Source of the DNA: Psilocybe cubensis
Taxonomy: Eukaryota
NCBI GenBank assembly: GCA_017499595.2
Contig: CM039007.1
Span: forward strand, 2,852,001-2,916,000
DNA length: 64,000 bases
Direction: 5' to 3'
Numbering within the stretch: position 1 is the stretch's first letter; every line of letters begins with the position of its first letter. A model generated the notes under the pieces. That model saw only the letters and a program-made list of their open reading frames with translations. It had not been told where the DNA came from and ran no database searches. Below are positions 12,521 to 64,000 of the stretch, piece after piece. Position numbers and translations under genes: made by a program.

Positions 12521-12702
12521 CGTGGGAATATCCTGCGTACAGTGTACGCAGAATATTCCCACGGTCAACCTCTCCCGATATTCAGCCGAGTGTGGGAATA
12601 TTCTGCGTATAGTGTACGCAGAATTCTCCCACGGACTTCCTCGCCGATATTCAGCCAAGTATGGGAATATTCTGCGTACAGTGTACGCAGGATTCTCCCA
12701 TG
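12521..12702. repeat. Three ~42-bp palindromic (hairpin) units between the convergent cargo genes
   Basis: Unit gtgggaatatcctgcgtacagtgtacgcagaatattcccac with ~25-bp related spacers. Two units at 63762-63875; related units at ~10423-10464 and ~10659-10700. Confidence 0.9.
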
Positions 12703-12846
12703 GGGTGCCAACTAACACCTTCAGATAATTTCTGTCATGAAAATGACTTGACAAATTATTCCTTGTTATTTACAATGTTCACGCAAATGGATTGATTGTT
12801 TGTTCAGCACATTTATGATATCCTTGTCTTTTTATGTACATATGTA

Positions 12847-13821
12847 TTAATCTTGGGACATAGTATTGCTATTGTGGACTGTGTCCTCATTTAAGCGCAT
12901 ACGTGCCATCCTCTGTTGCGTGTCTTCAATGTCAATCTGACCTTTGTACAGCTGCCTCTTTGTCCTACACAAAACAGCAACCTGTCTTTTCACTGGAGTA
13001 TAGCGCGACCGCATTCTGAGAATATCAGCTTTCTGTTGGAAGTTATGAATGGCTATGAGACTGTTCAATGTAACATTGCTTACCTCTCTTGCCTCCTGGT
13101 CCAAGACAAGTATTCCGCGAAGAGCGACAACAAATTTGTACTTGTTTCCTTGGGCAGGAAATGCAACAAAGGCAACACTGATCTTGACAATGTCTCCAAT
13201 TTGTATGGAGGCAGGATTATAAGAATAATATCTGTTGCAACATGATATTAGTTTGGTTGTGATGTGTTGTTGGTATTTTCTAAACATACCTGGCTGTTCC
13301 GTCAGGAAGTATCTCCCGACGAAGAAACTGTACCTTGTTATCGATTGCGTGGATGAAACTGTCCCCTACCATGGACGCCAACACGTTATCAGGGTCGACC
13401 AGGGGATGAAAACCTATGTTGTCAGATTTGTCTTGATATGCGGATACCTTCGTGAAATATTGGCTATGCGCATGGAAAACATTAAAACCCGTGTCTTTGT
13501 GAAGAACTGGGTCATAGCCGCTGACGCTGTCCGCGGGAAAATTGTTTGCAAAATGGAGGAAAACTTCTTCTAGCTTTTCCATCACCTTATTGAACACAAT
13601 GTCTCCGAGTCCCATGATAGCAATGGCGGTACGTAAATATGGTTGTTGCTTGACCGTTCTGTCGCAGCTGTAACAGTCCTCATTTGTAATTAATTCACCT
13701 CAATGGAGTGGACGTACGAAGCAGGCTTTGCCATTGGTGGTAGCATCTTGTCGCTAACTATGCCTTGGAGTCTGAATATCACTTCGTCCATTGCACCGAT
13801 ATCCACATCAAAGTTGGACAT
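12847..13821 (-). CDS. Cargo gene of unknown function (possible OB-fold ssDNA-binding-like protein), multi-exon
   Basis: Spliced MSNFDVDIGAMDEVIFRLQG...DNKVQF...YNPASIQIGDIVKISVAFVAFP...FVVALRGILVLD. Near-identical copy at 62644-63618. The fold call is only an inference. Confidence 0.7.
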
Positions 13822-18449: not shown

Positions 18450-18808
18450 CTCTATCATATAGAACTGAGGTATGCATGTCTTCACTTTCACATCTTATTC
18501 ACTACCTAATGTACCGTACAGTTTATTTCCCCTCTCTAGGTACATTGTCATGTAATTGAGTCTCTATCATATAGAACTGAGTTTATTTCCCCTCTCTAGG
18601 GTCTTGATTTCCTACAGGTTATGGGCCTTTCTTGTCACAATTAAAGTGGCACGAATCTTGACCCTATTACGATCTAATCTTATCAGCGCGCCCTTATCAG
18701 CGCGCCTTTTGATCCCTTTCATTGGAATACTCCCCGCATATTACTGGCTGCGGACTCCCATTCCTCTTCATAAGGCTACTCTAACTATCCTATACACTTC
18801 CTACTACC

Positions 18809-21800: not shown

Positions 21801-23500
21801 AAACGTTGGCCCAGGCGTCGAACGATATTGCCGCAGTCGGTATTACAGACCATCTTGTCGAACGGGTTCTATCCGCAATCGCGGAAACAAGCAGCATTGA
21901 CCCGCGAACTCTTGGTGATGAAGACGAGCCCAAGAACTATGCCGAGGCAAAACAGTCACCAGACGCCGACAAGTGGGAAGCCGCTTTTCGCGATGAAGTC
22001 AGATCGCTGAAGGACATGAAAGTTTTCCGCCTGATTCCACGCTCTCAAGTCCCGATAGGATCCAGAATCCGAAAGGGACGTCCAATATTCACTCGAAAGC
22101 GAAACGAACATGGGGTTACAGTCCGCTTCAAAGTGCGCATCGTCTTCAAGGGCTATGAACAAATTTACGGACAAGACTACACTAAAACAACGTCACCAAC
22201 TGCTAGAACCTCTACCTGGCGACTCCTTTTCCATATCGCCGCTGTCAAGGGATGGGATGCACAACAAATTGACATAAAAACCGCTTTCCTTCACGGAATA
22301 CTGCCTGAAGACGAGGTGCAATACATGGAGCAACCGGAGGGATGTGTGGAAGAGGGAAAAGAGGATTATGTGTGGGTAATTGAGCGAGGGCTGTATGGTA
22401 TGAAGCAGGCAGGGCGGATATGGAACAAGACGCTAAACGAGGCGATGAAATCTTGGGGATTCGTACAACTAAAAAGTGAGTCGTGTATATATTTTCGACA
22501 CGATCAACACGGTACTGTCATCACCGGTGTACATGTCGACGACTTCCTCTCGATTGCGGATCCTCCCAGTGCCAATGATCACTTCAAAGCACAAATGAGG
22601 ACGAAATGGACTATCTCAGATTTGGGCGAACCAAAACACTGCATTGGAATTGCAGTATCTCGAAATCGTACCGAACATACCATTTCTCTCTCTCAAACCG
22701 CCCTCATCGACCGTATCATCCAGCAATTCGGACAAAGTGATTCATATCCCCTCAGCATACCATTTGATCCCGGTCTAAAACTTAGACGTCCTGACCCCAA
22801 AGACATTAATGCAGAGGAGAAGACACAGATTTCAAAACTGCCTTATCGTTCACTAGTCGGCTGCCTACTCTACCTCGCAGTAGGAACGCGCCCCGACATT
22901 TCATATGCGGTCCAACAGCTATCCCAATACCTAGACTCGTACTCTTATGCCCACTGGAACGCCGCTATTCGAGTTGTACGCTACCTCAAAGGCACCAGAG
23001 ACCTCAAACTCACACTGGGTGGCAAATACGATATCAAACTAATGGGTTTTACTGACTCTGACTGGGCTAACTGCTTGGACACGAGGAGGAGTGTTGGCGG
23101 CTACGCGTTTTCACTCGGATCAGGTCTCATTTCGTGGAGTTCGAAGAAACAGAAGACATTGGCTACGTCATCCACAGAGGCTGAATATACAGCAGCGTTT
23201 GAGGCTTCGAAGGAAGCAGTCTGGCTTCGAACACTACTCACAGAAATTTCATTATCACCAAAAGACGAAACTACCATCATGTGCGACAACAACGGAGCCA
23301 TCAGCCTATCCGAGGACCCCTCAAATCATTCAAAGGCAAAACACATCGACATACACTACCACTATCTCCGCGAAAAGGTCGAAGAAAAAGCAGTCACCCT
23401 GGCTTATGTGCACACATCAAACAACATAGCCGACTTATTCACAAAAGGCCTCGACAGGACAAAATTCACCCGTTTCAGAACTCTCATAGGCGTAGTATAA
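18809..23500 (+). CDS. Copia gag-pol polyprotein (Gag zinc knuckle, PR, IN, RT, RNase H)
   Basis: Single 1563-aa ORF: CSNCARSGHTIEWC, YLDSGAS, WHRRLGH...C..C, NGRVER, DIKTAFLHG, LYGMKQAG, HVDD, FTDSDWA, NIADLFTK; copia order with IN before RT. Confidence 0.97.
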   Translation: MGDGTTPTIDPNDATRPSVSEKHITATYKGDPLDKNVGNWKTWSRTIKDDLTIHGFGAHINRKLCKSPDPSVYPIAHRNWVYNDQVAKSYICRYCVDFEREKIDHLETALECWETLEKYHLDEGPIKQVSLIQKALTSRIPRDSTMVEKAREIREQIKRAFQIPGGVTEDVLTVIAILHALDDGHDHTRLLIQTQMQSATKERPYRYEDIVLVLEREVQLILGAEQRNTLADSPLALAAQTKGKGKSAITCSNCARSGHTIEWCIKGPNGGMKGKTIAEVRAARAEKNGQTSSRTNASSKPPTYSFKDASGKALFTIQVDPSPPDATPNTTEFAGLASITPEQFVQLEQRATDRLAEEESIEYEGWMAKVEELTEIDTPTTSLDWNAHSRVFDTAKIATSPLNTPDSTPIKNIEELPFYLDSGASTHISPEATDFKTLRPISLRSVKGVGGSSINAHGVGDISLRLPNDISIQLKDVLYIPQSAARLISVSKLARHSKTRSAFDDEGCIIQSKLTGATIATGTLLNSNLYSLDLYKPEADHIFVASHEPDLETWHRRLGHPNYQTLVDMARKGLVEGMSLPDALPKKCNSCILGKQTKTPVPKKREEGEGHRATEILDKVLADLSGKHDVKSKSGNEYVMDIMDDCASFTWGIPLPDKGAADDNLIAWEIAREREFGKRVGTYYIDNGELKTKKFLAWTRSRGTRVVFTAPYTSAHNGRVERLHRTIMNKARTMRIYAGCPPSLWDEFYLTGIHLQNRTITRSIDSVTPYQILYKRAPDYSYMREIGCRAFVLIQPVKSNPKIYARSIECVLIGYEPNAKAYRCYHSTTKRVVRFLESHEGHSRSITDNPSPTSPTTLPEILASSTPESNNLNEDIEEFLTGAPPEEDVLTPPKQQHNIQPVPDAPAPIYRNPDIKPADQRRTSSRIAHANGDDAKKRSRLERALEEVRESAERRREYLDELKRRREEKKRTLVDVVEEEKRNDPQVVKKEAVAEIKETLAQASNDIAAVGITDHLVERVLSAIAETSSIDPRTLGDEDEPKNYAEAKQSPDADKWEAAFRDEVRSLKDMKVFRLIPRSQVPIGSRIRKGRPIFTRKRNEHGVTVRFKVRIVFKGYEQIYGQDYTKTTSPTARTSTWRLLFHIAAVKGWDAQQIDIKTAFLHGILPEDEVQYMEQPEGCVEEGKEDYVWVIERGLYGMKQAGRIWNKTLNEAMKSWGFVQLKSESCIYFRHDQHGTVITGVHVDDFLSIADPPSANDHFKAQMRTKWTISDLGEPKHCIGIAVSRNRTEHTISLSQTALIDRIIQQFGQSDSYPLSIPFDPGLKLRRPDPKDINAEEKTQISKLPYRSLVGCLLYLAVGTRPDISYAVQQLSQYLDSYSYAHWNAAIRVVRYLKGTRDLKLTLGGKYDIKLMGFTDSDWANCLDTRRSVGGYAFSLGSGLISWSSKKQKTLATSSTEAEYTAAFEASKEAVWLRTLLTEISLSPKDETTIMCDNNGAISLSEDPSNHSKAKHIDIHYHYLREKVEEKAVTLAYVHTSNNIADLFTKGLDRTKFTRFRTLIGVV

Positions 23501-25680: not shown

Positions 25681-26325
25681 ATGGATAAGCTGGTAGCACC
25701 TACTCCGAACCACCGTCAAGCATTCCCACCGCAAGGCCTGGATGAATATACAGTTCAAGGTTCCGCTATGCTCACCGACCACCCAGTTAACCTGTTCCCG
25801 CTATATCAAAACTCAGATATATCGTCATATACTGAGGATGTCGCATCCGGATTCATACTACCCCCTGATTACACCAGAGAGCACACGATTACTTCCTACC
25901 TCAATTCGGTCTGTGATATGGACATTGCAACAAAGGCGCCCTGCGAACCCCCAAACCGTCACACTCCCATAGATCCAGACAGCTATTCGTTAATAATGAC
26001 CCTCGCAGATACCTACATGGTGCACTCTGCCCGAACAGGCTCACTCGATGATATCGACGCCGCCATAGCACACTACCAACGCGTGCTGGGCATGCTCACG
26101 CCAGAACACGAGAGTAAGGACGTGGTACTTGATAGCCTCAGCATCGCGTTTCAGAAGAGATATGATCTGTCCGGCGAATATCGCGATGTCCATAGGGCGG
26201 TGATGTGTTTACGGGAGGCGATGCGGCTGTGTCCGAATGGGCACCCTGAGCGTGGACGCCGGGAGCGTCGGCTTAAGAACGCACTTCCTGTTCGGTACGA
26301 GAAGATGCATACGATGCTTCGCTAA
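25681..26325 (+). CDS. Small stand-alone TPR protein (CHAT-associated repeat type), no protease domain
   Basis: GSLDDIDAAIAHYQRVL..TPEH..K..VLDSLSIAFQKRY..SGEYRDVHRAV..LREAMRLCPNGHPER matches the repeats of the CHAT genes in this window. Confidence 0.7.
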   Translation: MDKLVAPTPNHRQAFPPQGLDEYTVQGSAMLTDHPVNLFPLYQNSDISSYTEDVASGFILPPDYTREHTITSYLNSVCDMDIATKAPCEPPNRHTPIDPDSYSLIMTLADTYMVHSARTGSLDDIDAAIAHYQRVLGMLTPEHESKDVVLDSLSIAFQKRYDLSGEYRDVHRAVMCLREAMRLCPNGHPERGRRERRLKNALPVRYEKMHTMLR

Positions 26326-30876: not shown

Positions 30877-33800
30877 TTAATACCCGAGGTGAATATAAGG
30901 AACCCACGTCACCAACGCTCGTTCAGTATCTTTCAGACTATCTCTAACCATTTTCGTTGCATAATCCAAGGCAAAGGCTGCCCGTGTGCTGTCCAGACCT
31001 CCGTTGTTCGACTCTCTCATCAAGTACTGATAAAACTCGGTAGCAAATTTTGGGCCATATGAGTCTGTGATGTTCCACATTGTACCGATTACACCTCGAT
31101 ATCCAACGGCAAGCATACCTGCTGCGAGATGGACGACTTCATCGGATAATAGTGAGTCTCCTTGACTTGTTTGGCATGCAGAGAGAAATGCTAGCTCTGG
31201 ATCTATAATTCTATGTTTCATAATTTCCAAGAGGGTAAGGCGCCCGTTTTGAAGGCAAATTCCACTTTCGAGAGGGTTTGCGCGATCCTGGACACCATAA
31301 CATGCGAAGTGTGCCCAGCTATGAGACAGCATTTCCTTCTGGACTTTTTCCACCGTTGCATCTGCATCGTCTAACAGCAAAGTATGGATATGTTTTGTAA
31401 TTGATTGTACAGAGCTAATTTCCGTTCTCGTCGAAGGTAAGGAACTTAGACCTGGAGTGCTGGCCTGGCCAACAAGTAGAAGGTTACGAGACTTGGAAGG
31501 TGACGATTCCAATGCGACGGCACTTTTTTCCACGACGGATCTGACTGTAGGCGTGTATGATGATACCACGAAATCAGAAATACATAATCCGTACCGGTAG
31601 TTCTCCCCATAAATTCCAGCAGCGTGAAGAGGAAGGAATGAAAGAGAACCCGTTGGACACCACCACAAACGGCTACGTTCAGCCCCAATAACAAGCTCCT
31701 TCTAAAAGAAAACAAGTGTCAGAAATTGTAGTCAATTGGGGTATCTTAAGGTGACTCACGGGATATGCCAGAGCGTCAAGGATGGGTAACACAAGCTTAT
31801 GCCAAATTTCACGAAGAATGAACGACATAGGTTCCGGATTGTTTTTTCGGCGTCGGCTCGCCCGCTCTTCACCGTTACTACGTTGGCCCAAAATATCTGT
31901 CTGAAGGATTTTTCGCAGACTTTCCGCATCTGAAGCACTGAAATTTTGAAGCGGGATGTGCAAAGGGTGCTCCATCCCTGCGCTAAGAGCTAATGCATCG
32001 CATCGAGTCTTGTGAACATTGAATATAATAACAGACCCTTCATGTGGTAAAGAAGAGAGTATGATGTTGCATTTTTGTGGTCGGAGAAAATCTTGAAAAT
32101 TTGGCAGAGACCTGATTTCGTCAAGAAGTCTCTTGTACTCTGAAGCGAGTCGTGTATGCGCCAGAGTTTGGTCTTGAGCGTGTAAATCTTTTGGCAAAGT
32201 CTCGTAAGATGTAGGCGCCGAAGAGTCTACTCTTGTGCTATATGATTCCAATTGCAAGGCAAGATTCGTGAATCGAGTAGCATGAGATGGGAATTTATCT
32301 TTGAGGCGAATGAGTGGATTTCTTAGGTCAGTTATTTGATTCCACACCAAACAGCGCCCTTGTTCAAGCCATTCAAGCGCGATATCTACCTCCCCAAAGC
32401 TGAGGGCAGTTGAGATTGCTGTGTTGATAAAAGCAGAATGTGGCTGGATGTAGTCGTGGCGGCGGTGAATGGTTTGTTCTAGACCGGCCACCTCTGAAAG
32501 AAGACCAATCGCCAAAGAAAAGTCATCAAGACAATGGGAGTGATCATGAGAGTCCGCCAGGAGGGCAGCTTCCTTGGCACACGCGAGGCGAATAGACGGG
32601 AACCCATTTGAGGCAGCACCTCGACGATATGCACCAATACAGGATTGGATATCCGCGTCCTGCTCGCTCCTCTCAAACTTGCTCAGATATGCGTTTCCGA
32701 GGCTAAATAGTAAGCTGGGGAGCTCAGCGTGTCCGACATCAATGTGCTTTATGGCTGCCTCGTAAAGAGAAATTGCGTTGTCGAGATGATTCATTATTGC
32801 TGCTCTATGAAAGAGGCTAATGTAACAGACAGCCAAATTGGCAAGCCTGCCTGGGAGATGGGAATGCCCAATAGATGTTCTACGTAGTGCTTCCTGATGG
32901 TATAGTATGGCTTGAAAGGCATCCTGTGCATTTCCATTGAGTTCAAAGCGGCGTTCATGAGCGTTACCTGCATTGCTGAGCCGCCTAGGCAGATCGGCAT
33001 GATTATTCTCAGTGTGATTGATCGATTGCTGGTGGTTTTCAATGGCCGAATCAAGGTCTTGTACATCTCTAGTTTAATCAAACCTCGCTAAGTATGAGCA
33101 CCCAAGATTGCAGGCCCACCTAGGAAGGTCGATGTGTCCAGGAGAAGTACAATCCAGTGCTTTCCTATGGTATAACACGGCGGAATCGATATCTTGGATG
33201 CTTTTTGTTCGTTGGAAACGATATGCATATGAGATCCCGAGGTTGGTAAAACGTCTTGAAAGGTCTGCATGATCAGCTGGCGTAGAGATCAAAGCATTTT
33301 GGTGGTGGGATATGGCAGAATCGATGTCTTGAAGGTCCCCTGTAGATTGAAAACGTGATGAATACGAGCATCCCTATGGCTGTCCGTTTGCACATTTAAT
33401 ACCAATCATTAAACTTTTTGTCCCATATTTAGAAGTCTTGGACTAAGTCTTCCAATAACTATATCTTATGGTGTCCGAAGATAGAGAAAAGGCTTCCAAT
33501 CATAAAGATCTCATATCCACACATTTGTATATTGCAACCTTAGGTACAACTTTGAGTACCATACATATAGTTTTGGAGCCCACATATATATATTAGAATC
33601 CCTTACATAGGAAACCCATGCCGTTTCATACATTTTTTGCTCCCCCACATATATCTACTGGTTCCGGCAATCTTAGATTTTACCTGTCGTCGTCCCGAAG
33701 AAATACAGGTGATTTTCGGCATTCGTTCCTGCCGTGGCAAGCTTGCCTTCGTGCGAATTCGGCATATCTCGGCAATCAGCCAGACGAATCACAGCACATT

Positions 33801-35550
33801 GCTGTTTTTTCACCTTGACACAGGCAGAGTAAGCACTGACACAGTTTCAAATACTAACCGATTGTGAATGCTATAATGTAAGCTAAATACAGCATTATTG
33901 AGTGTTTTTTCTGAGCCAAGCGCTGTGATAACAGCCAGTAGCAGATATGTTAAGTTTGGTTAAGGTTAAATACACCTGAAGTTGAGGTTATAGGTGGTCA
34001 ATCTACTCAGGGTCAGCTATACGCACAGGTTTTGTGTTTCATCATCAAACTCGAAATTTTTAATGCATATCTGAACTTAAAGTATTCCCCTAGCTGCTTC
34101 AGGAGTAGCTATCCACCCCAAAGCGGGGTACAAATATAATTCCCACACGGATTCGGCAGTGCCGGCACGCAGGGTAGTCATCTCGACAACTCTATGTCTT
34201 TGGAAAAAATGTTAGATATATGGGGAGGGGATTACAAAGTATGGTACGGGATGTCATATATAGGGGTGAGATGTATATATGTATGTACCATTCATTAAAG
34301 TTGAAGATTCTGTAAATACAATTATCGGGATGATTTCCTCTATGCTCGGAAACTAGCTCTCTATGAGTGGGACATTAATATATATAGTGGGGATTGTATA
34401 AAACTGTTCTCTATATGTATGGGACAAAAAGTTTAATGATTGGTATTAAATGTGCAAACGGACAGCCATACATCCCAGGTTATTTAACACCATTGGTAAT
34501 TGTGCATGTCGGCGAGGAATCAAATCGAGTGCCTTCTGGTGATTGTCTATTGTGCGATTAATGTCAACAACTTTTCCTGATCGAGCCCCACGACGTGAGT
34601 ACGATTTGCCCAGATTACCGAACCAGGTGAAAAGATCGGCATGACCAGCAGGAGTGAGCGCTATTGATTTCTCATGGTTCAAGATGGAAACGTCCAAATC
34701 ATCGAGGTCGGCGGTGTGCTCATATCTACAAAAATACGAGTACCCGATGTTGTTGTAAAATCCTGGCAAATCCTCACTACTTCCCGAGGTGCTTATAATT
34801 GACCTTCGGTGGCATGATATAGCCTGATTGACATCCGTAAGGTCCCCTGAACGCAAAAATCGATACAAATATGCTGTCCCAAGGTTAGTGAGCCATGTAG
34901 CAAGCGGAGGGGGGGTGCAATTGACTGCTTGTAGATGATTCAATATGGACCTATCAAGATCCTCGAGTACAGCAGTTCGTTTATAACGAAGGCCGTACGA
35001 ATTTCCAAGGTTACTGAGTAGATGAGGAAACTCTGGTTGTTTCTCAGGAGTAATGGAGATAGCCTCAGTAAGACTAGCAATCGATCTGTGAATGTCGTCT
35101 AATTCTCCCAAACGCTCGAAGCGTGAATTTAGTGCACTAGCGAGATTACTCAGTCGGGTGGCTTTCCGTGGATTTCCATGTGGGGTGTGCTCCAGTGCCT
35201 GCTCAAAGTCGAAAATGGCCTCTTCAATATCCTTTAGAGATGAGGTATGATAGAACCGTTTTAATGCGAACACTCCGTGGTTTGTGAAATCTTCCGCCTT
35301 CATATGGAATCAACCAACATGCTCAGTGCTGATGCAAAAATATTTACCTGCATGGTACCAAACCCCGTTGACATATAGTTTCCCATACTCGAATAAACTG
35401 CTGGCAGGAAGTTGGCGTTGTGAGAATTCACGGTAAGGCCGTCTATGACTATTGATGAATGTGTTGAGGAGGTCAAAGGGTTGATTTTCTCTTTCGTTGC
35501 AGAGAAGCATACATAAGTCTTGAGCTCTATAAACAGATGCACCCTAGAAC
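30877..35550 (-). pseudogene. TPR-CHAT caspase-like protease pseudogene (5' end not resolved)
   Basis: TPR array, EWLEQGR.LVW, WWCPTG.L.FLPLHAAG, LSACQT. Lesions: TE insertion at 33375-34470, in-frame TAA at 33074-33076, catalytic HFACHG changed to HFACYG (31297-31299). Confidence 0.9.
33375..34470. mobile_element. Non-autonomous TIR element, IS3EU-like ends
   Basis: ~52-bp TIR TATGGCTGTCCGTTTGCAC...; 6-bp TSD CATCCC on both sides; interrupts the TPR reading frame. Confidence 0.9.
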
Positions 35551-40640: not shown

Positions 40641-43600
40641 CTAGTAACCAAAATGTACATAAGGGACCCATTGGGAAAATGAGCTATCACAGTCCACCAG
40701 ACATTGTTGAACTTGTTTTGTCGCATAGTCTAACGCAAATGCTGCATCCCCACAGTCCAGGTTCCCGTTGGATTGCTTGTTGTTAACTATGTATTCGTAG
40801 AATTTGATAGCAAACCTCGGTCCATAAGCGTCAGAAATATTCCACATCGTACTCACAACTCCACGATATCCTGCTGACAGCATACCTGCAGCAGTATGGA
40901 CGGCCTCTTCTGAAAGCCTATCGTCCCCTTTTGAGGTCTGACAGGCCGAGAGGAATGCCAAATCTTTGTTTGGGATATTCTGCTGCATAATGTCAAGAAG
41001 TCCCAGGCGACCATCATAAAGGCACAGGCCGCTAGAAAGCGCATCTCCATGATCTTGAACACCATGACATGCAAAGTGAACCCAATTGTGAGAAACCATC
41101 TCTTTCATGACATTCTCCTTTGTTGCGCTCGTGTCCTCCAGCAATCGTGTTTCTATCCCAGTTCCAAGGAATAGGGTTTGAATATCATGCGTCTCTTTAC
41201 GAACCGAAGGTATAGGGTTCAGTCCTGGTGTGTCAGGCTGGCTGATTAGAAGGATATCAGTAGATGTGGATTGTACAGGTTTTGACGCCATCTTCTCCAG
41301 GAGGAAGCGCACGGATGGCGTGTATGACGACACCACATAGTCACGAACATTAGAGCCAGTACAATACTCTGATCCGTATATTCCTGCTGCATGGAGAGGG
41401 AGAAAAGCAAGAGGACCAACGGGGCACCACCATATGCGTCGCCGGTTTAGTGGTTCATTGGAGGCCTGTAATTTAACATGAGAATCCTTGATGTCGTTTA
41501 TGAGCTCGATTCAACAGCTACGTACCGTATAACCTAATGCCTTGATAATTGGCCAAACAATCTTCTGCCAGAGTTCCTTTAATATATACCTCATAGGCTC
41601 TGGACGTTCATGACGACGGCGAGTTCCACGTTCCTGATTGTCGACATCACGTTTGTCCAGAACATCAACTTGAAGAATTTTCTGCAGCGCCTCGGCCTGT
41701 TTGATGTCAAATTCTGTAAGGGGTACGTGCAATGGAGCACTGCTATCCTTTACAAGCGCTAAGGCATCACAGCTAGTCCTGGAAATATTAAATATTATGA
41801 CAGGCCCTTCAGCAGGTAGAGACGCTAGGATATGGGCGGCCTTTGCGGGCAAAAGAAAGCGTTCGAAGTTTTTCTGACTTCGAATTTCCGACAAAAGGCT
41901 TTTGTATTGAGCTGCAAATAGCGTATGATCCAGTGCTTGACTTTGAAGGCTGATATCGTCTGCAAGATTTATACCAGACTCCACTGTAGCCGGAACCTTT
42001 CGAGTTCCATGATGCTCCAACGCTTTAGCTAAGTTCAAGAACCTATCAGCTAGGTTCGGATGTTTCTCTTTAAGATCGTCAATCGGTGTTCGGAGCTGAT
42101 TTATCTGACTCCAAACCAAACATCTTCCCTGTTCCAGCCATTCCAGAGCAAGATCAAGTCTACCAAAATCTAATGCTGCGCCAGCTGCTGCCCTTATGAG
42201 ATTAGAATGACCTTGGAGGTTGTAATGACGGCGAGAGATTGTCTGCGATAAAGCCGCTACCTCTGACAGTAAATCTATAGCGAGTGAAAAGTCACTTAGA
42301 CATCCCTCGCGATCATAGTCGAATGAGATAAACGCAGCCTTTGTTGCAGCATCAAGGCGAGCAGATGGAGTCCCTGGTGCATTGGCGCCTTTGCGATATG
42401 CCTGAATTGCAGCCTGTATATCAGGTTGCGAATCGCAAAGCTCAAACCGACATGCATACGAGATACCCAAGCTGTACAACATCGTGGTGAGAATGGAATA
42501 CGTGGCAGGCGTGAGATCAATAGCTTGTTGGAAATATGATATAGAGAGGTCAATGTTGTCAATGAAACAAGTTTTCTTGAAACGAAGGCCGTGAGCATTT
42601 CCAAGATTACCGAGCCACGCTCCTCGAGCCGTATGATCCTTAGGTGCGCAGTCCAAGGCTTTTCTTATGAATGCGATGCTGTTGTCGATATCGCAGAGGT
42701 CCTGCGTATGGTCGAACTTCAACTCATATGACGTTCCCAGATTGTTTAACCAGTTTGGAAGAACCGCGTGGCCAGCTGGAGCCAGGTCAATTACTTTGTG
42801 GTGAAGGATCAATGCAGTGTCAATGTCCTCCACGTTATGGGAATGCCTGAAGCGAGTATCATAGGCGTTGGCCAACAAGTTAAGATATCTTAGATACTCT
42901 GCATGATCGGGGGGAGTGAAATCAACCGCTTTATGATGATAGGAAATGGAATGGTTAATGTCTTGATCGATTTTGGAGTGTTCAAAGCGCACTCTATACG
43001 AATATCCTAGGCCACAAAGCAGAATCGACAAGTCAGGGTGATCCGAAGGCATTGAGTCCACCCCCTTTTGGTGGTACGATATTGCATAATCAATATCTTG
43101 AAGATCTCCGGTCACCATGAATCGAGACAGGTGAGCATCTCCCAGGTTGTGGATTCGCCGGGTAAGCTCAGAATGTCCGGGGGGAGTGCTTTGCACCGCC
43201 TTCTGATTGTACATGAGGGCGCGGTTATTGTCTTCAAGGTCACCAGTCCGCTCAAAACGCGACAAGTAAGATCGGCCAAGGTTGCTTAGGTAGACGGCAA
43301 GGTTTTGAGCGTTGGATGGTGTAAGCTTTACAGCCTTTTCATGATAGGAAATCGCCGAATTGATATTTTCAAAGTCACCAGTGCGATTAAAACGAAGAAG
43401 ATAGGACGTTCCCAGATTTGCGCAGAGGCTTGCGTTGTTAGTCGAGCTATCACATTCCAAGGCCATTTTGTGATACGAAATTGCCGAATCTATGTCCAGA
43501 AGGTCTCCCGTGCGTTCGAAGCGACGTCCATAAGAATGTCCTAGACCATTATAAAATCCTGAAAGATCTTCATGCCCAGGATGTGTGGAGTCTGCTGCCT

Positions 43601-45428
43601 TCTTATTACACGCTATAGCCAAATCTAAATCGAGAAGATTTCCCGACCGTTCGAACCGGCGTGTATATGAAAACCCAAGCCCATGATTCCAACTCGGAAG
43701 ATCTGGATGTCCAGATGGTGCGAAATCGATTGTTTTCTGGTGGTATGATATAGCAGCCTCAATGTCTTCCAGACTTCCAGTGAGCTCAAACCTACTGACG
43801 TATGCATTTCCCAGCTTATGGAGTCGACTGGGATAAGAAGGATCATCTGCAGAAGTCAAATCTAGAACCTGCTTCCAATAGTCGATGGAGACATCGGCGT
43901 CTTGAAGTTGCTCACTATTCTTGAAACGGGAATGATACGAAGATGCCAATTTTTCCAGAGACATGAGACGCGTCGGACCTTCATGAGGAGAGCAGTCCAA
44001 CGCTTGGTGACCAAAAGAAATAGCAAGATTGATATCGTGTACATCATGGAATTGTTCTGAGCGCGTCCTGTATGCGATTGCAAGATTTATGAACGACCTC
44101 CAAAGGATGTCTTTGTTTGAATTAGCATTATCAACAGCTTTGCGATGATATGATACAACCAGGTCAATATCGTTTATGTCTTGAGTACAGTTGAAACGAT
44201 CCGCATAAAGGTTTCCGAGTTTGGTGAGGATATTGGGGAGATTGCTCGGGGGGCAGGATTCCTCCATCTTCCGGAAGTGAGATATGACAAAATCGAGATC
44301 ATCGAGGTTATGGCTAAGATTGAAACGAATTTCGTAAGAAATCACAAGGTTATTAAGCCACCTTGGATGGTCGTCGGAAGTGGAATTAAGCGCCTTCGTG
44401 TGGTACTCTACTGCGTGGTCAATGTCGCCTAGATCTTTTGTTTGCTTGAACCTGCATCGATGCAAAATCCCCAGGTTGCTGAAAATATTAGGTAGATTCG
44501 GATCGCCTTCATGAGCTAGCCTTACAGCATCTTCGAGTGTCGAGATAGCCTTAGTAATGTCTGCAAGGTCTCCAGTAAGATCAAAGAGCGATTGTAAGGC
44601 ACACGCTAGGCCGTTCAAGCGGTCGGCCATCTCCTCGTGCTCGTCTGGGGTGCGCTTCACCGATTCTTCGAAGTTTAAAATAGATTGTTTGAGGTCCTGT
44701 ATATCGCCAAATCGTTCAAATTTGCGCAGAAAGAATATTCCGCATTGTTCAAGATACTCCGGCTGTGTTTGATCAGTTATAACAATAAGTAATTGAGGTT
44801 CGTGACTGACATTCATAAAACTCTGCAAATTAATTGTAGTAGTATAGCTGTCTTGGTGATTTCCCACCTGCACCTCCTCGTAGTTTGTCCAGGGGGTGGG
44901 ATCCTGTTTTACAAAAGGTGGGATTTCCTCGTCGTTTTGTAATCGTGGCCAGTCCCGTGAACTCTTATCAACCTTCTTCAGGGTGATCACAAGACATTTC
45001 CTCGGAAGATCCTGCCTCACAACCATAGCCTTTAATTGTCAGTTAGAAGATCCACGCTGTGAATAGAAATCGATTCACCTCCGAGTCAACTTTTGAATAT
45101 AGAACTAGGTCAAATGCATATTTGGCTTCGTTCAGACTTCTGGATGAATAGGACAATTCTGATGAGTATCTAAAACCACTTCCATGGAAAAGAATAACGT
45201 ACTCTCTGGGATAAGCCCGAAATGAAAGAGTTTTATCCAAGACGGCAGTTGTGCACTTCAAACATGATGTTGCAATGTCGGGAATGTTGACGGACAGACG
45301 AATCAAATTCTGTAAAAAAAATGTTGAGTAAGATGTATCATTGGAATATGATGGTAACATACCTCTTGGTCAGTGGTTTCTGAACTTTTCTGGGCCCAAA
45401 AAACTGATGGAATTATGTGTGACGTCAT
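40641..45428 (-). CDS. p23/Sba1(CS)-TPR-CHAT caspase-like protease, apparently intact
   Basis: Exons 45428-45363, 45309-45203, 45139-45079, 45029-~41526 and ~41465-40641. N-terminus MTSHIIPSVFWAQKSS...NLIRLSVNIPDI...YAFDLVLY...LKK...DWPRL; long TPR array; CHAT dyad HFACHG and LSACQT intact. Confidence 0.88.
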
Positions 45429-46723: not shown

Positions 46724-47889
46724 CACGATGGGCACCTAACTGTCATGTGGCTATCTAACATGTTAGCTAGGTTGTTGCCATAATATTGTACTATGTTAAT
46801 TGTCATGTAATTGTCATGTTAACTGTCATGTTTTTTGGGTCACACTTTACCTTGTCACTCAAGACCCAGTAAGTCTCTGTGAACCGTGAATAGTCTTCAA
46901 GTCCCATAGCTAGCAATCAAAAATGGAGTCTGGCAGTTGCATAACCGGTTGACTTGGGGGCAATAATGCTACTCAATTCTCTTTTTTACGATGCTGTTTA
47001 ATTTTTAAAACCACGTGGAACAGTTTAGCCGACGGGTGTATACTGTTGGTGTGCCTTTCTGAGTTTGAATGAGCTTGAAAGCGGCCAACATGCCGACCGC
47101 AGCAACGGTGTAGTCAAGGAGCTTTGACGCGTCGAAACGCGTCTTTATTTCGCGGCGCGTCTCCTCTTTGCGCCCGTTTTTAGCTATGTTTCCCAATGCC
47201 TGGCAAGGTGCACATTCTGTCAACGATCACACCCATCTAGAGCAAGCCTCTCAGCCCGTAATTGACGTGATTTCCGATCTTAGTGTGCGAGATGTGAGAA
47301 CATGATTGCGACTGTTTGCTCGTCGACCGGTTTTGCATTGTTAATGAAGAAAATTGCCATTCTTTCCCAGGAAATGAGATTCTTGTCCTTATTTGCTGAT
47401 ATCTAGGTGCATGCTGTCTCTCTAACGCGCGAGTACGCACCATATTAGAAGAAATTGATACGAATAGGGGGATTCTAGCGAGCATGATTACCGATCGGCT
47501 GTTCGGCATGGGTATTGATGGATTCAAATACCGCCATGATGTGCACCACATGAATTTTATTGTCATTAAATCTTGAAATTTAATTGCAATTTGATCAATC
47601 AAAAAAATTCAGACAAATTACTGTTTTCTTAAGCCAATGCCCCTAGTGTTTAATATTGGCCAGGTGGTGTAGTGTTAATGTATACACTCTACATTTCCTT
47701 TCATTTTTCCCCCAAGTCAACCGGATATGTATCTGCTGGACCCCATGGTCTTGAGTGACAAGGCAGAGTGTGACTCAAAAAACATGACAGTTAACATGAC
47801 AATTACATGACAATTAACATAGTACAATATTATGGCAACAACCTAGCTGACATGTTAGATAGCCACATGACAGTTAGGTGCCCATCGTG
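46724..47889. mobile_element. Non-autonomous CACTA/EnSpm-like element
   Basis: CACGATGGGCACC...GGTGCCCATCGTG; ~140-bp TIR with tgtcatgt subrepeats; 3-bp TSD AGA; inner inverted pair ccggttgacttggggg at 46945 and 47709-47724. Confidence 0.85.
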
Positions 47890-47929: not shown

Positions 47930-47964
<35 letters not shown>

Positions 47965-49162
47965 AAGGGGATCAGAAGTGACAAAAAGTGTTTGGCATTG
48001 TGGTGAAACAGCGACAAAAAAAAAACAATAAACAAGTTGTTCAGTAACGAAAAGCCCGCACAAAGGGTAGCAAAACATGTATGGTCATGTATGGCTAGAG
48101 GGTAAAGAAACAAACAAAGAAGTTGATCAAGAAGATAGACTTACTTACTATATATGGGAACCAAGGCCAAGTAATTGGGTACTTCAATTCGATATCGTGC
48201 CCTTATTGACAATCGACAGTGTAGTTACGAGTCCTCCCTTGGAGGAATCGTTTTTATATCGAACTCGACGTATATCCGAAATCGTGAAACGCATAATGAG
48301 CCGGCGATCAATCGGCAGGGTTTGATCGGCGATTGAATGAGCGATTTTGGCCGTTCACATGCCCGAGAATCGCTGTTTTGATTGGCCGGCGATCGATCAG
48401 CTCAATGTCGGTGTTTAAATTTCAGTTGCTGTCAAAAAGCCTGTCAATCCAGGCTTTTGGCAGGGAATGAAACGCTTTTTGAGCCGGTAATGGCTCGGCA
48501 AAGAAGTCGGAACTTTAAATATCTTGCCACTCGACATCAATCAAAATCTGTTTGAATTTTCAAAGGTTTCTTGTTGCTCCAGCATTGTATGGCCTACTTA
48601 GTTACCTACAACAACTAAATGGTTATTCATAACCATATCATTAAAGGCCTACTTATTTATGTAGACCTAAGAAATTCACCAGTTGTTCATTACCCTTGCA
48701 TTCATGGCTTACTTACTTATGTAGCTTATCTACAATAGGACAACTTGAACATTAGTGATTTCATTCTTTTCAGTCCAGTCTTTGTCTTCAAGTCAGATGA
48801 AACTATTACAATATTATAGTTTACTGGATGAAGCCCCTCCTAAAATACATTTCTTATAAATTCCAAAGGAATTGATCACAAGGACTCGTATCTGCCGTGC
48901 GTAGCAACGGCCCACCTTACAAGTAGGACAGCAAGTCTGTCGGCCACTGGTTGTCAAAACATTGTAAAAACAAAAGGAAAATATGTGGAACCAGCAATTG
49001 ACAAAATCAGTCAAGATTTCTACAGCATGGACAGCGAGTTCATAAACAGAGCCGGAGTTGTTTGTCTCCGGTCTAGATGTGCCTGGTCAGGCCCACTCTG
49101 ACACAAGTTGACTCGGGGACAAAGCTATAAAACTACAAGGTATATTTGTCCGAGGTCAAGCA

Positions 49163-50368
49163 ATGTCACTCAATATAGGAATCCCAGCTCCCTCACCCAC
49201 GGAAATTTTGTTTGGCAAAGGCTTGCTGGACGCATTTTTACGCACTATCACAAAGACTATTGAAGCTGCACCGGTACCTCTTGCCACAGCTCCCAAATGG
49301 AAGGTGTGTTTGTATCGTAACAACCATAAGCACCGTTATTGATATCATATGCGCAGGCGACAGCTGCGATTCTCAAGTCCGGTATGTAGCCTCCTTCATT
49401 CTGTGTGCAACGGTGACTGACATGTTAAAACGTAGCCATTAGGGATGACATATCCAAGCTTATTTTGATTAGGCCACATATGAAAGTAAGAGGACATCAG
49501 GTTAGTTCAATCCATTGGATGAGGAGTCACAGACTTAGAAATTGTGTGAGCAGATCGACCATGTTTTTGAATTGCAGGTTCGTAGTGAATATTTATCAGC
49601 CAAAAGTGTTGACTTATTGTTGCTGCTCCAGTATTTTGTTTCTGCTTTCCTCTTCACTGTCGGCCTGTATATTATGACAACTGGAGACGTCACGTTCAAG
49701 CCCGATGTAACCGATATTTCGCTGGCGGTAACAATCATCAATTCAGAGAGCAATGTGTGCGCTTTGGTCAACAGGAAGCACAAGTTTAAAAGGGAGTTTT
49801 TCAGAGCGTCTGAAACCAAAGGTGGGGCTTGGGTTCACCGCTTGTACTGCGTTTCTAATTCAATGTAGAGTTCTACGGAGATGAAGACACGATCACAGCC
49901 AACCTTGACACGCTCCTGGAATACATGTGTACATACAGCTCTCGCTTCTCAGCGTACCTGACAGAGTTATCAAAGACAATCTTAGCAAAGCCCGATATCC
50001 ATACACCGTTCAAGACAATGTTCATCGCAAATCTCCTCTTGACGCCGTGGTGTCAGGGTATGATGTGGAAGCCCATTTTCGACAACGCACGCCTTCATCA
50101 GGTACCCTTTTCCAAAACTGTCACCATGAAAAATTATATGTCGCAGCCCTGGATGAACGACAATCTGGTTTATGAGAAGATCTCGGTAGCGATTGGCGGC
50201 GAACCCACGGAAGATGAATATATCAAGAAAGGCGCGATGGTCTATACTTATGACAAAGAACAACAAGAAATCGGTATAATCGAGACCGAGCCGTTCACGG
50301 AAGAGGAGTTGAGGAAGCGGGGGTTGTGGGATGATGACTCGTGGCTGGAGGAACCTTTACCGATTTAA
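49163..50368 (+). CDS. HNH-like motif protein, tandem paralogue 1
   Basis: Six exons in the same layout as the paralogues; GHQ-IDHVFELQ...INSESNVCALVNRKHKFK; C-terminus MKNY..QPW..DN...W. Confidence 0.8.
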
Positions 50369-51187
50369 CGAAGACGACACGGGTGGCCTGTGCGCAGCCA
50401 CTAGCTCGTAAACATATGCACACGATAATATGAATAGTATCTGCAATTTTGGCTGCCGTGCAGTCTGAGCTTGATGAACCCTCAAACTACTTGTCACAAG
50501 TTTATTGAAAGCAATGTGGGGTTACTTGTGCGATTCATGTTCGCAAATCAGGCCCCGCCATTTACATTAAGCGCCGGTAAACTATGTATATGGGGCTTAA
50601 TAAGTTAATTTATTACGGGTCTGACGATGGTAGGACAGAATCCCCACTAGATGGTTAGGACATTGACAAAACAAGGTGTATATTGGACTGGCACAATATG
50701 TGCCCCTATGGACCATCGTCAATCCAGCTCCTGCCTCCGAATTTTTGGTCTATTGTTCCTATATTCCCCTTACGACGTCTCGGAGATTTTTGCATCCGAT
50801 TATTGACATGGCGTAATGATGAAACTGGAACCGTCTAACAGAGACAGGATTCCCATATAGGAAATGTAGCGATTAACGTTTCAGGGATAACACTGACAGA
50901 GGTAACGTAAGTGCAGGCGAAGTACTAAGAAGGATCGTGTATCTCCGAAGAACGTCAAAGGTTCAGGCACCGAGATGAAGAGATAGCCTTATACGCTCCA
51001 TCACGTCGAATTGAGACCCATCATTGTATTGGGTTAAACCGGTGCTTGATAGTGCCGGATCATTGCTGAATGACCTTTCGTTCCTCGTTTGTTACGGAGA
51101 GTGTTCCTGATGTTTGAACACCACGGGAAGGCGTTATAAGGTCGTAAAAACCATCCTGGATGTGTAGTCTGAATCATTCCACATAAA

Positions 51188-52386
51188 ATGGCAGATCAAT
51201 ACATACCTCCTCAAGTCACCGATAGCATCCGCTTTGAAGGTGTACTTGAGAAGTTTTTGAGCCATACAACCGTATCATTGAAGAAAGTAGGCGTCATTCC
51301 CGTAGCTTGGAGAGTGAGCCTTGTCTACGTATCATTGCATGATAATGTTCTAACTGTTCTGCAGACGATGGCTGGTTACCTTAAAGCCGGTGTGTACCCG
51401 ATGCCCTTTCTCATCCTCGTCTGTTGAAGTAGCCTTATAAATGGATTAACAGTTATTAGAGACGATTGTTTCAAGCTCAAGTTGTTGAGGCAAGAGTTCA
51501 AGCAGAAAGATCACCAGGTATGATTTCGTCTTTTCTTGGAATAACCCCGTAGTGATGCTTGAGTTTTACAGCTCGACCATTTATTCGAAGTCCAGGTAGG
51601 TCATGCTAGGCATTGATCGTGATCTACGTGATTAATTGGTTCATTACTAGTACTTCGTTGCTACATTTTTGCATACCGTTGCGCAGTTTATTTGCACAGA
51701 AAATATCTCCTTCAAACCTGATATCACGGACATCTCATTTGCAGTTATGCTCATAAACTCGAAGGCCAATCTTTATCCCATGAAAATATTTGAGCACAAG
51801 GTCAAAACGGCGTTCTTTAGAGCGGCTCAAATTAAAAGTAAGTTTGTTGTAACATATCTATCTCTATTTTCATTGAAAACATTCATATGTGATAGAACTC
51901 AATGGAGAGCCACAGTACCTCGACGCGAACCTTAGCGCCCTTTACAACTACCTAATGGAAAAAGGAATCATATATTGTGACTACTTGACGAAGCAAGTAA
52001 AGATCTCTGTCAATGATCAGAGTCACACGAACCCCATGTTCAAGAAGATGTTCGTCGACAATCTTGCAGCAAGTCCGTTCTGTCAGGTTTCCGAATGGCA
52101 GGATATCTTCAAAAAATTACGGGATTTCAGTACACCATTTTCGACAACGATAAGCAGCAAGAACTATATTCCGCAGCCATGGATAGACGACAACGTCGTC
52201 TATGACAGCATTGGCGATCACCTTGCATCTCAGCCTCTCGCTCACTCGGAGAAAGATTTTCACGAGGCGATACAACCGTATAATCCTGACTACGTATACG
52301 TTTCCATAGGTATAGAGTTGGCTCCAATGTCTCCTGAGAAATTGAAGTCGATGGGGCTGGTGAAGGAAGATGGGTGGCTGGATTGA
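51188..52386 (+). CDS. HNH-like motif protein, tandem paralogue 2
   Basis: DHQ-LDHLFEVQ...INSKANLYPMKIFEHKVKT; same intron positions. Confidence 0.8.
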
Positions 52387-53179
52387 ATTGTGCCGATAGC
52401 GGGTAAATATTGGAGGTGGCAGGTATGCAGCCACCAGTTGAAAAAATAATAGCATACCAATTATCACTGTTCCAACGTACCTAAAAATAAGAATCATTCG
52501 TCGGATTTAAAAAGTTAACTGAAGATAGGGTGAAAGTTCAGCTTTGCCATTGGATTTTCCTTTCAAATCACGACATCACGACATTTCCTCTACCTAGTTT
52601 CCCTATTCTCTCTCTTCACCAGTGGCCTTCACTTGTCACTGCTTATGAAAGATAATTCAATTTTGCGTTGTGACTAAACTCCCCTAATACGTGCAGCACT
52701 AATCCGCATCTCCGTCGAGTATACACTTGTTTAAAACCCACTCCCTTTCAGTCCTGTAAGTATCAATACCTCATTTCATCCTCTTCATACCGTTCATCTG
52801 ACACCACGCCCTCATAGCACCTCTATTAACGCTTTCTATAACAACTCTACTCGCGCGTCAAACACGCAGCAATGACATAACAAGGCACTTGATTTCCTTC
52901 AATTAATTCGGTTACACCAGTCATCCTCGGTGTCGTATGTAACACCACAGGGGACATACCCACTCGGCACCTCCGGTGTTCAGTATCTCCGACATCTTGC
53001 CCCATCCCCATCAACCACCGAGGTAACACACCTTGACGCATGTCAGGAACGCACACACGCTCATTCTACAGTGTTCCGTTCCCCGAAGGTATGAGTTGTG
53101 TGAGGTGGTGGAATGGAATGAAGTATAAAATGGAGATAGGGTTTAGGTCTATGAAGCCATTTTGCGCGCACAGACTACA

Positions 53180-62544: not shown

Positions 62545-64000
62545 CTTGTTTTAGTGGGCCACCGCGGAGCGTGGCATGACGAGTCTTTACGATTCAGCGT
62601 CATGCTTTGTAATAATATAATATATATATAATATAATATAAATATGTCCAACTTTGACGTGGATATCGGTGCAATGGACGAAGTGATATTCAGACTCCAA
62701 GGCATAGTTAGCGACAAGATGCTACCACCAATGGCAAAGCCTGCTTCGTACGTCCACTCCATTGAGGTGAATTAATTACAAATGAGGACTGTTACAGCCG
62801 CAACAGAACGGTCAAGCAACAACCATATTTACGTACCGCCATTGCTATCACGGGACTTGGAGACATTGTGTTCAATAAGGTGATGGAAAAGCTAGAAGAA
62901 GTTTTCCTCCGTTTTGCAAACAATTTTCCCACGGACAGCGTCAGCGGCTATGACCCAGTTCTTCACAAAGACACGGGTTTCAATGTTTTCCATGCGCATA
63001 GCCAATATTTCACGAAGGTATCCGCATAACAAGACAAATCTGACAACATAGGTTTTCATCCCCTGGTCGACCCTGATAACGTGTTGGCATCCATGGTAGG
63101 GGACAGTTTCATCCACGCAATCGATAACAAGGTACAGTTTCTTCGTCGGGAGATACTTCCTGACGGAACAGCCAGGTATGTTTAGAAAATACCAACAACA
63201 CATCACAACCAAACTAATATCATGTTGCAACAGATATTATTCTTATAATCCTGCCTCCATACGAATTGGAGACATTGTCGAGATCAGTGTTGCCTTTGTT
63301 GCATTTCCTGCCCAAGGAAACAAGTACAAATTTGTTGTCGCTCTTCGCGGAATACTTGTCTTGGACCAGGAGGGAAGAGAGGTAAGCAATGTGACATTGA
63401 ACAGTCTCATAGCCATTCATAACTTCCAACAGAAAGCTGATATTCTCAGAATGCGGTCGCGCTATACTCCAGCGAAAAGACAGGTTGCTGTTTTGTGTAG
63501 GACAAAGAGGCAGCTGTACAAAGGTCAGATTGACATTGAAGACACGCAACAGAGGATGGCACGTATGCGCTTAAATGAGGACACAGTCCACAATAGCAAT
63601 ACTATATCCCAAGATTAATACATATGTACATAGAAAGACAAGGATATCATAAATGTGCTGAACAAACAATCAATCCATTTGCGTGAACATTGTAAATAAC
63701 AAGGAATAATTTGTCAAGTCATTTTCATGACAGAAATTATCTGAAGGTGTTAGTTGGCACCCCATGGGAGAATTCTGCGTACACTGTACACAGAATATTC
63801 CCACACTCGGCTGAATATCGGGAGAGGTTGACCGTGGGAATATTCTGCGTACACTGTACGCAGGATATTCCCACGCTCATCCGCAAGTCAAACTTACAAA
63901 TTAAGACAAAAAGAATGAGGACGAGAACACAAGTTTATTTCGAACAAAAATTTGACTAAGGATGGAAGAAATTACAAATATCCATTCCACAAGAGGCTTT
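62545..64000 (-). mobile_element. Second copy of the Helitron-like element (3' portion; runs off the window)
   Basis: Near-identical reverse complement of ~12400-13920; similarity stops exactly at ...ctaaaaCAAG|T. Confidence 0.9.
62644..63618 (+). CDS. Second copy of the cargo gene at 12847-13821
   Basis: Same exons with only a few substitutions. Confidence 0.7.

Follow-up and report, generated by a model that had tools for sequence, protein, structure and literature searches.

In plants and animals, the SGT1-HSP90 pair contributes to the stability of nucleotide-binding leucine-rich repeat (NLR) proteins, SGT1 being a co-chaperone with a CS domain that connects Hsp90 to a repeat-containing immune receptor. 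Plant NLRs may also carry integrated decoys, which are copies of host proteins embedded in the receptor, such as the HMA domain of RGA5 and the WRKY domain of RRS1. The closest described fungal system is the tetratricopeptide repeat (TPR)-CHAT protein Q2L-6 of Podospora anserina, whose isolated CHAT domain is reported to cleave a gasdermin encoded next door, and whose full-length form is assumed by its authors to be repressed (Clave et al., 2022; PMC8851545). Here, a stretch of 64,000 nucleotides from Psilocybe cubensis (positions 2,852,001 to 2,916,000 of contig CM039007.1, assembly GCA_017499595.2; hereafter the window) was analyzed, which contains on its minus strand, from 45428 to 40641, a six-exon gene encoding a protein of 1504 amino acids (aa) by exact mapping to the window. 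In this protein, a domain of the Hsp90 co-chaperone p23/Sba1 precedes TPR-like repeats and a C-terminal CHAT protease domain. The order of repeats and CHAT is the same as in Q2L-6, which is likewise presumed to be repressed at full length. In contrast to the window protein, Q2L-6 is described without a p23 domain and adjoins its gasdermin substrate, whereas no gasdermin was recognized among the window ORFs searched. The likeness to the SGT1 system lies in the connection of a CS domain, and potentially of Hsp90, to a repeat-containing protein, and the SGT1 CS-Hsp90 complexes 2xcm and 2jki were indeed among the Foldseek matches of the window domain; SGT1, however, is a separate protein that uses another Hsp90 surface, whereas the window protein has a p23-type CS domain fused in cis. 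Plant integrated decoys resemble the window protein in that a receptor-like protein has taken up a host-protein copy, but searches of the whole window protein against Pfam returned only TPR families and CHAT and no nucleotide-binding oligomerization domain (NOD; NACHT or NB-ARC). The comparison with NLR integrated domains made in the initial annotation of this DNA therefore holds as an analogy only.

Residues 1–130 are a true p23/Sba1/Wos2-type domain with a similarity far above chance, as had been proposed from the bare sequence. In phmmer searches of the PDB sequences, residues 5–130 aligned to residues 5–128 of yeast Sba1 (2cg9_X; E 1.1e-7), and the p23-like protein 2kmw of Arabidopsis was also matched (E 2.4e-5). 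A local match to the S. pombe Mediator subunit Med11, obtained in the same database with an unspliced piece (E 0.04) and with residues 14–65 (E 6e-4), was rejected as a chance or local similarity because p23 is indicated by both the full-domain matches and the fold. A phmmer search of 1.84 billion cluster representatives found 72 matches at E ≤ 1e-3, all but three of which (69 of 72) were proteins of 92–370 aa. The named short matches among those looked up were designated “HSP20-like chaperone”, “Protein wos2”, or “p23/wos2 family” and stemmed from Agaricomycetes, for example Mucidula, Piloderma, Sparassis, Leucocoprinus, Mycena, Tephrocybe, Tulasnella, and Amylostereum. A custom p23 profile built from the 69 short matches, with the query excluded, recognized the window protein at 6e-29 and assigned no score to the other 119 TPR-CHAT homologs. 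The empty result of a search against NCBIfam was uninformative, since the canonical p23 proteins P0121 and P0128 did not produce a match there either and the database thus holds no p23 model. An AlphaFold2 model of the domain, calculated from alignment A1, is an all-beta sandwich with a mean predicted local distance difference test score (pLDDT) of 84.3. When this model was compared with the PDB by Foldseek, ranks 1–5 were taken by human p23 or Sba1 (target-normalized TM-score 0.65–0.79), followed by other CS domains such as those of Shq1 and Sgt1.

The characteristic residues of the family agree with this assignment. Of the 12 near-invariant p23 columns in alignment A1, the window protein keeps 11 (W11, A12, Q13, S15, N23, K97, W105, P106, R107, L108, and D121), the exception being R14K. 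With p23, Sba1 of S. cerevisiae, and Wos2 of S. pombe it shares the CS beta-sandwich fold, the N-terminal WAQ(R/K)S motif, the invariant Asn and Lys, the WPRL signature, and the Trp of the F..W motif, and with basidiomycete p23 genes also the intron positions. WPRL(L/T)KE has been named as a p23 signature (PMC10098053); in the window protein W105-P-R-L108 is present and is followed by QND in place of TKE. A clear difference from these co-chaperones is found behind the domain, where the window protein has no free acidic C-terminal tail: the acidic Gly/Met-rich tail is gone, and approximately 1370 residues of linker, TPR, and CHAT follow instead.

The gene was delineated with the 1175-codon stop-to-stop open reading frame (ORF) 41514–45038 as query, which matched at 98% identity the P. 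cubensis protein P0001 (UniRef A0A8H8CF43_PSICU), of which 1504/1504 residues map to the minus strand of the window. It contains five GT-AG introns of 53, 63, 49, 48, and 60 nt. The initial annotation had placed three canonical introns in a p23 part at 44870–45428; these three are present, and the spliced N-terminus of 151 residues corresponds letter for letter to the peptide it had given, but there are five introns in all and the gene extends far beyond that segment. No other ATG lies between the start codon at 45428 and an in-frame stop 12 nt upstream. Exon 1 (45363–45428; residues 1–22, start codon 45428–45426) carries W11-A12-Q13-K14-S15, which is the p23 “WAQRS” motif with an R to K exchange in alignment A1, and intron 1 (45310–45362; 53 nt, GTATGT..ACAG, phase 0) lies directly before the invariant Asn N23. 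Exon 2 (45203–45309) encodes residues 23–58, including the first two bases of codon 58, and covers beta strands 2–4 of the p23 fold. Intron 2 (45140–45202; 63 nt, GTACGT..CCAG, phase 2) is in frame and free of stop codons, and exons 2 and 3 (the latter at 45079–45139, residues 58–78) can consequently be read through as one 108-codon ORF. Behind intron 3 (45030–45078; 49 nt, GTGAAT..AAAG, phase 0), exon 4 (44811–45029; residues 79–151) supplies the remaining third of the p23 domain as well as the beginning of the linker, with K97, W105-P-R-L108 at 44951–44940, and D121-P122-T123-P124-W125 at 44903–44889 (P122 at 44900–44898). Intron 4 of the P0001 model (44763–44810; 48 nt) is in frame and without a stop. 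A second public model of the gene, P0193 (NCBI KAH9477231, “hypothetical protein”), differs only in the choice of the linker intron: it retains 44763–44810 and removes 44823–44867 instead (45 nt, GT..AG), the frame being preserved in both models. Exon 5 (41526–44762; residues 152–1230) encodes the TPR-like repeats, a helical linker, and the start of CHAT, intron 5 (41466–41525; 60 nt) is in frame and includes the stop codon terminating the long ORF, and exon 6 (40641–41465) encodes the CHAT caspase-like protease domain and ends with the stop codon TAG at 40643–40641.

The fusion of the p23 domain to the protease can be read from this arrangement. Its C-terminal third and the TPR array lie in the single 1175-codon open frame at 41514–45038, the next ORF in the same frame (40644–41510) holds the CHAT domain, and exon 4 with K97, WPRL, and D..W runs stop-free into the linker and the repeats under either linker intron. 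The in-frame connection to TPR and to a CHAT domain with conserved His and Cys, as originally described, was thus confirmed. About 17 TPR-like repeats with a period of 45 aa occupy residues ~160–960; 15 were matched by a regular expression with a spacing of mostly 43–46 aa, and Pfam assigned TPR_10, TPR_12, and TPR_8 to them. The Pfam CHAT family (PF12770) was found at residues 1212–1461 with E 3.3e-31 and 109.2 bits against a cut-off of 24, whereas the CHAT exon had no match among the PDB sequences. H1364 (41066–41064) is conserved in 104 and C1405 (40943–40941) in 103 of 106 aligned homologs; following the caspase/CHAT motif pattern, we take these two residues to be the catalytic pair. In addition, the window contains a tandem pair of paralogous genes on the plus strand (~49100–50400 and 51600–52400), divergent from the protease gene, with one membrane-helix-like stretch. 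Searches of Pfam, PDB, ESM Atlas, and PADLOC returned no match to them, and neither is recognizable as a gasdermin.

The origin of the p23 module was addressed by a comparison of intron positions. An alignment-based scan of metagenome contigs yielded 80 p23 loci, where an earlier scan with a single p23 query had given none. In eight of the nine genomic-looking loci examined, the tblastn alignments break at the same three places, with the match spanning more DNA than the protein needs, and in the remaining one (L037) at two. Splice sites were resolved in four of the eight loci tried (L008, L009, L025, and L045), but not cleanly in L011, L036, L037, and L044. The introns 1–3 of the window gene are located at alignment columns 22 (phase 0), 57 (phase 2), and 85 (phase 0), and column and phase of all three are identical in L009, L025, and L045; in L008 this holds for introns 1 and 3, while intron 2 is offset by four columns within a variable loop. 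The breakpoint of the fusion falls in the last p23 exon, past the Trp that starts the tail. Given the shared intron columns and phases, the module is not a retrocopy but was copied from the genomic DNA of a basidiomycete p23 gene, taken to be the p23/Wos2 gene of the fungus itself, whose three ancestral introns it has kept, in accordance with the genomic capture originally suggested. A separate canonical p23 of P. cubensis was not found among the 120 listed of 1228 matches to the Mucidula p23, which did include the p23 proteins of Hypholoma and Pholiota, and a word-based search with the window N-terminus among proteins of near length returned nothing.

Of the combined CS, TPR, and CHAT architecture, for which the initial annotation had recommended a search, just three proteins appeared among the 1.84 billion representatives. 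These are the only long p23 proteins among the 72 matches: the window protein, its P. cubensis paralog P0148 (XP_047753485; 1207 aa), and the “TPR-like protein” P0157 of Rickenella mellea (TDL21763; 1462 aa). Pfam detected TPR and CHAT in the latter two as well, and both have the p23-TPR-CHAT order of the window protein, from which they differ by an overall identity of 28–31%. The window protein and P0157 are colinear over residues 7–1503 and 15–1461, respectively, at 31% identity. The window protein is thus a member of a very small p23-TPR-CHAT subfamily of Agaricomycetes. In a tree of the 72 p23 domains, the three fused domains fell into one clade of 25 sequences together with Agaricomycete p23 (support 86/88) without being resolved as a group. 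An approximately unbiased (AU) test did not reject a grouping of the three (p = 0.151), and a single ancient fusion is therefore possible. The domain had already been flagged by name in the databases, A0A8H8CF43 being listed in UniProt as “CS domain-containing protein” and the paralog in NCBI as “Protein wos2”, so the novelty lies in the reading of architecture, origin, and state and not in the detection of the domain. No paper describing a p23-TPR-CHAT architecture was found in the literature searches made here.

Among TPR-CHAT homologs in general, N-terminal extensions of at least 99 aa occur in 28 of 120, and those of fungi are mostly unrelated to each other. One of the homologs, P0052 of Crassisporium funariophilum (1725 aa), has an Hsp70 nucleotide-binding domain (residues 109–378; E 9e-41) before TPR-S repeats and CHAT, so that this protease family has acquired a chaperone-type module in a second form. 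A further observation from the p23 searches concerns eukaryote-type “p23/wos2 family” proteins of actinomycetes, P0128/P0205 of Streptomyces anulatus and P0272 of Embleya scabrispora, which are encoded on Streptomyces contigs of 8.7–8.8 Mb. P0128 clusters with fungal p23 in the tree, and a transfer from fungi to actinomycetes may have taken place.

Although its fold is maintained, the fused domain has diverged strongly, as had been noted from the sequence. Measured in changes per column, the end branch is 2.66 for the window domain and 2.15 and 1.98 for the two other fused domains, compared with a median of 0.56; the window domain thus evolves approximately 4–5 times faster than canonical p23. 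Its identity to 119 canonical p23 proteins ranges from 25 to 38% (mean 32%), whereas 30 canonical Agaricomycete p23 proteins are 56–82% identical to the p23 of Hypholoma. One exchange affects a site of known function. The F-D-K-W motif of yeast Sba1 is reported to contact Hsp90 through F121 and W124, which occupy a hydrophobic pocket in the Hsp90 middle domain. Isothermal titration calorimetry detected no Hsp90 binding by the mutant F121A, whereas binding is preserved in W124A, with weaker inhibition of the ATPase (PMC7864943). After correction of the Sba1 alignment for the first Met, which is absent from the PDB chain, P122 of the window protein corresponds to F121 and W125 to W124; the F-x-x-W motif is therefore incomplete, with the Trp kept and the Phe replaced by Pro. 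Phe occupies this position in 44 of 49 canonical rows of alignment A1 and in all 30 rows of alignment A2, and 113 of the 120 canonical p23 proteins listed in the search with the Mucidula p23 have D-F-x-x-W behind WPRL. The paralog P0148 retains D-F-S-R-W as well as an acidic stretch. What the window copy has lost is thus the residue on which canonical Hsp90 binding depends; its fold and remaining signature residues are preserved, and canonical docking on Hsp90 is therefore probably weakened.

Transcript data and variation between strains were evaluated where contigs of public sequencing runs covered the gene. None of the runs recorded as RNA covered the stretch. A contig of run X5, which is guessed to be RNA, joins 41464 to 41525 and skips 60 nt with CT..AC ends on the plus strand, which indicates splicing of intron 5; the whole-stretch contigs of runs X2 and X3 lack this join. 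Two guessed-RNA runs yielded contigs just at 41173–41421, 41425–41650 (spliced), 42905–43070, and 44373–44567, and none over the p23 exons. Run X3 represents a second strain. Of its 35 listed differences, beyond which there are 8 more, 16 are synonymous, 13 non-synonymous, and 6 non-coding, and none introduces a stop; this fits a gene under moderate constraint. Two non-synonymous and two synonymous changes among those listed fall into the p23 domain. Over 45276–45402 (exon 1 and intron 1), X3 has two contigs with different letters, suggesting two alleles or copies in that strain.

Taking these results together with the described systems, we tentatively favor, with slightly less than even confidence, a scenario in which the protease was linked to the Hsp90 cycle through its p23 module, and in which the window copy has since drifted toward a sensor or bait that resembles p23 but docks less well. 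By analogy with Q2L-6, the window protein would be an autoinhibited protease of the HET-Q2-like kind, NLR-like but NOD-less, in which the repeats and the N-terminal domain form the input. The TPR array would keep CHAT inactive, and the p23-derived domain would serve as input or regulatory module. The ancestral module may have docked on ATP-closed Hsp90, in favor of which we count the D-F-S-R-W motif and the acidic stretch of P0148; Hsp90 would then have held or stabilized the protease in cis, and loss of this contact would have licensed it. In the window copy, where docking is probably weakened, the domain may be a diverged sensor or bait that still resembles p23, and the activated CHAT would cleave a downstream substrate. 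Conflict systems with threshold-setting pairs of chaperone and co-chaperone have been described (PMC8195603), and the Hsp70 domain of P0052 is a further general precedent. More doubtful is the specific proposal that the fused copy guards the Hsp90-p23 axis: it would report either the loss of ATP-closed Hsp90, caused for example by natural Hsp90 inhibitors of competing microbes, or its own capture by a p23-directed factor of viral or microbial origin, and would thereby release a caspase-like protease that triggers regulated cell death.

Several observations speak against this coupling scenario. The first concerns the domain itself: the Pfam CS family (PF04969) gave no match at E ≤ 10 on single exons, on the unspliced frame of exons 2 and 3, or on the spliced 151 aa. 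The initial annotation had named the lack of a CS/p23 profile hit as grounds for abandoning the domain, and for Pfam CS this is literally what was found, while the custom p23 profile recognizes it clearly; Pfam CS is weak for this clade because only 4 of 12 short p23-like proteins reach its cut-off of 21.3 bits. The Pro at the position of F121, present in the window and, among the differences listed, in both DNA runs covering it, argues against canonical docking on Hsp90. In P0157 of Rickenella, the domain stops after W-P-F-L, so that the whole F..W segment with the last strand is lost, and R107 is replaced by F. The invariant residues kept in the window copy (W11, W105, P106, L108, and others) may reflect only maintenance of the fold, and the long end branch fits relaxed constraint. 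As the domain is present in only 1 of 120 TPR-CHAT homologs, it is dispensable for the basic function of the family. Finally, no gasdermin was detected among 53 ORFs of the window with Pfam or among 20 ORFs with PADLOC, intron-split genes and weak models of fungal gasdermins limiting both searches.

Some of the same observations have also to be weighed under other explanations. The domain could be a pure integrated decoy that has no dealings with Hsp90 but, by mimicking p23, baits a viral or microbial factor targeting p23 and thereby releases the protease, in the manner of the integrated domains of plant NLRs. In Cryphonectria, the fungal p23 CpCop23 is reported to be regulated by a mycovirus and to affect the response to it (PMC10098053), which we count in favor. 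Fast divergence (2.66 against a median of 0.56), the loss of the Hsp90-anchoring Phe while fold and look of p23 are kept, and the variable extensions in front of other TPR-CHAT proteins (28/120 with at least 99 aa) also speak for a bait. The complete Hsp90-binding motif of P0148, the modest polymorphism of the domain (two non-synonymous and two synonymous among the X3 differences listed), and the missing NOD domain speak against it. Moreover, we know of no effector that binds a fungal p23, although no search aimed at one was made. We regard a pure decoy as unlikely.

An inert relic is less probable still. Exon shuffling would in this case have placed p23 exons before a TPR-CHAT gene, followed by neutral decay without any role, and the long branch, the loss of F121 here and of the last strand in Rickenella, and the rarity of the architecture (3 of 72 representative matches) could be explained in this way. 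Against neutral decay stand the three pairs of p23 splice sites and the reading frame, all intact, the 11 of 12 near-invariant columns kept, and a fold that is predicted with confidence (AlphaFold2 pLDDT 84.3); in addition, a paralog and a protein from another order of the Agaricomycetes have retained the architecture, with a full-length colinear alignment. We see only a small chance that the domain is a targeting module that brings the protease to Hsp90 complexes in order to cleave Hsp90, co-chaperones, or clients. While p23 is reported to bind client-loaded closed Hsp90 (PMC7864943) and P0148 keeps the binding motif, the window copy is devoid of the Phe, and for the fungal TPR-CHAT proteases studied so far the described substrate is a dedicated partner from the neighboring gene (PMC8851545). 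An erroneous merging of a small p23-like gene with a TPR-CHAT gene, for which the uncovered p23 exons in the guessed-RNA runs and the different linkers of the two public gene models could be cited, is highly improbable, as the WPRL and D..W part of exon 4 runs without a stop into the TPR array under either linker intron, two proteins from other loci or genomes have the same architecture, and W125 is followed neither by a stop nor by the canonical acidic tail.

Further features were observed in the surroundings of the gene. The minus strand carries a second TPR-CHAT gene (30880–35459; CHAT E 1.6e-32) approximately 5 kb downstream of the first, which is 45–55% identical to the C-terminal part of the main gene apart from ~1 kb without similarity (33394–34473); no p23-like part was found near it by tblastn. 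An isolated TPR-like fragment on the plus strand (25906–26319) is 20–30% identical to the repeats of the main gene. A non-autonomous element with terminal inverted repeats of 143 nt that are 97% complementary is located 1.3 kb upstream of the gene start (46724–47889) and is followed by a long A run near 47940–47965. A Copia-type long terminal repeat retrotransposon on the plus strand (18785–23497) looks intact, with an uninterrupted 1571-codon ORF containing gag, pre-integrase, integrase, and RVT_2. The window also comprises an exon of HMG-CoA reductase (70–1026, minus strand; Pfam E 2.4e-109) and, toward both ends (~12510–13360 and 63105–63886), a repeated element with the same translated stretches in opposite orientation, as judged by loose tblastn.

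For fungal TPR-CHAT proteases, a role as caspase-like executors of regulated cell death is becoming apparent. An Hsp90 co-chaperone copy built into such a protease offers a concrete input that could switch it on, either the state of Hsp90 or a factor that binds p23, and the three fused proteins provide a natural comparison, with the motif intact in the paralog, the Phe replaced in the window protein, and the segment lost in Rickenella. In plants and animals, NLR function requires Hsp90 and a CS co-chaperone, to which a fungal version fused in cis would be an independent solution. If true, the reading of the fused copy as a guard would establish the first integrated-decoy or guard sensor in a fungal NLR-like protein, with chaperone status wired directly to a death protease.

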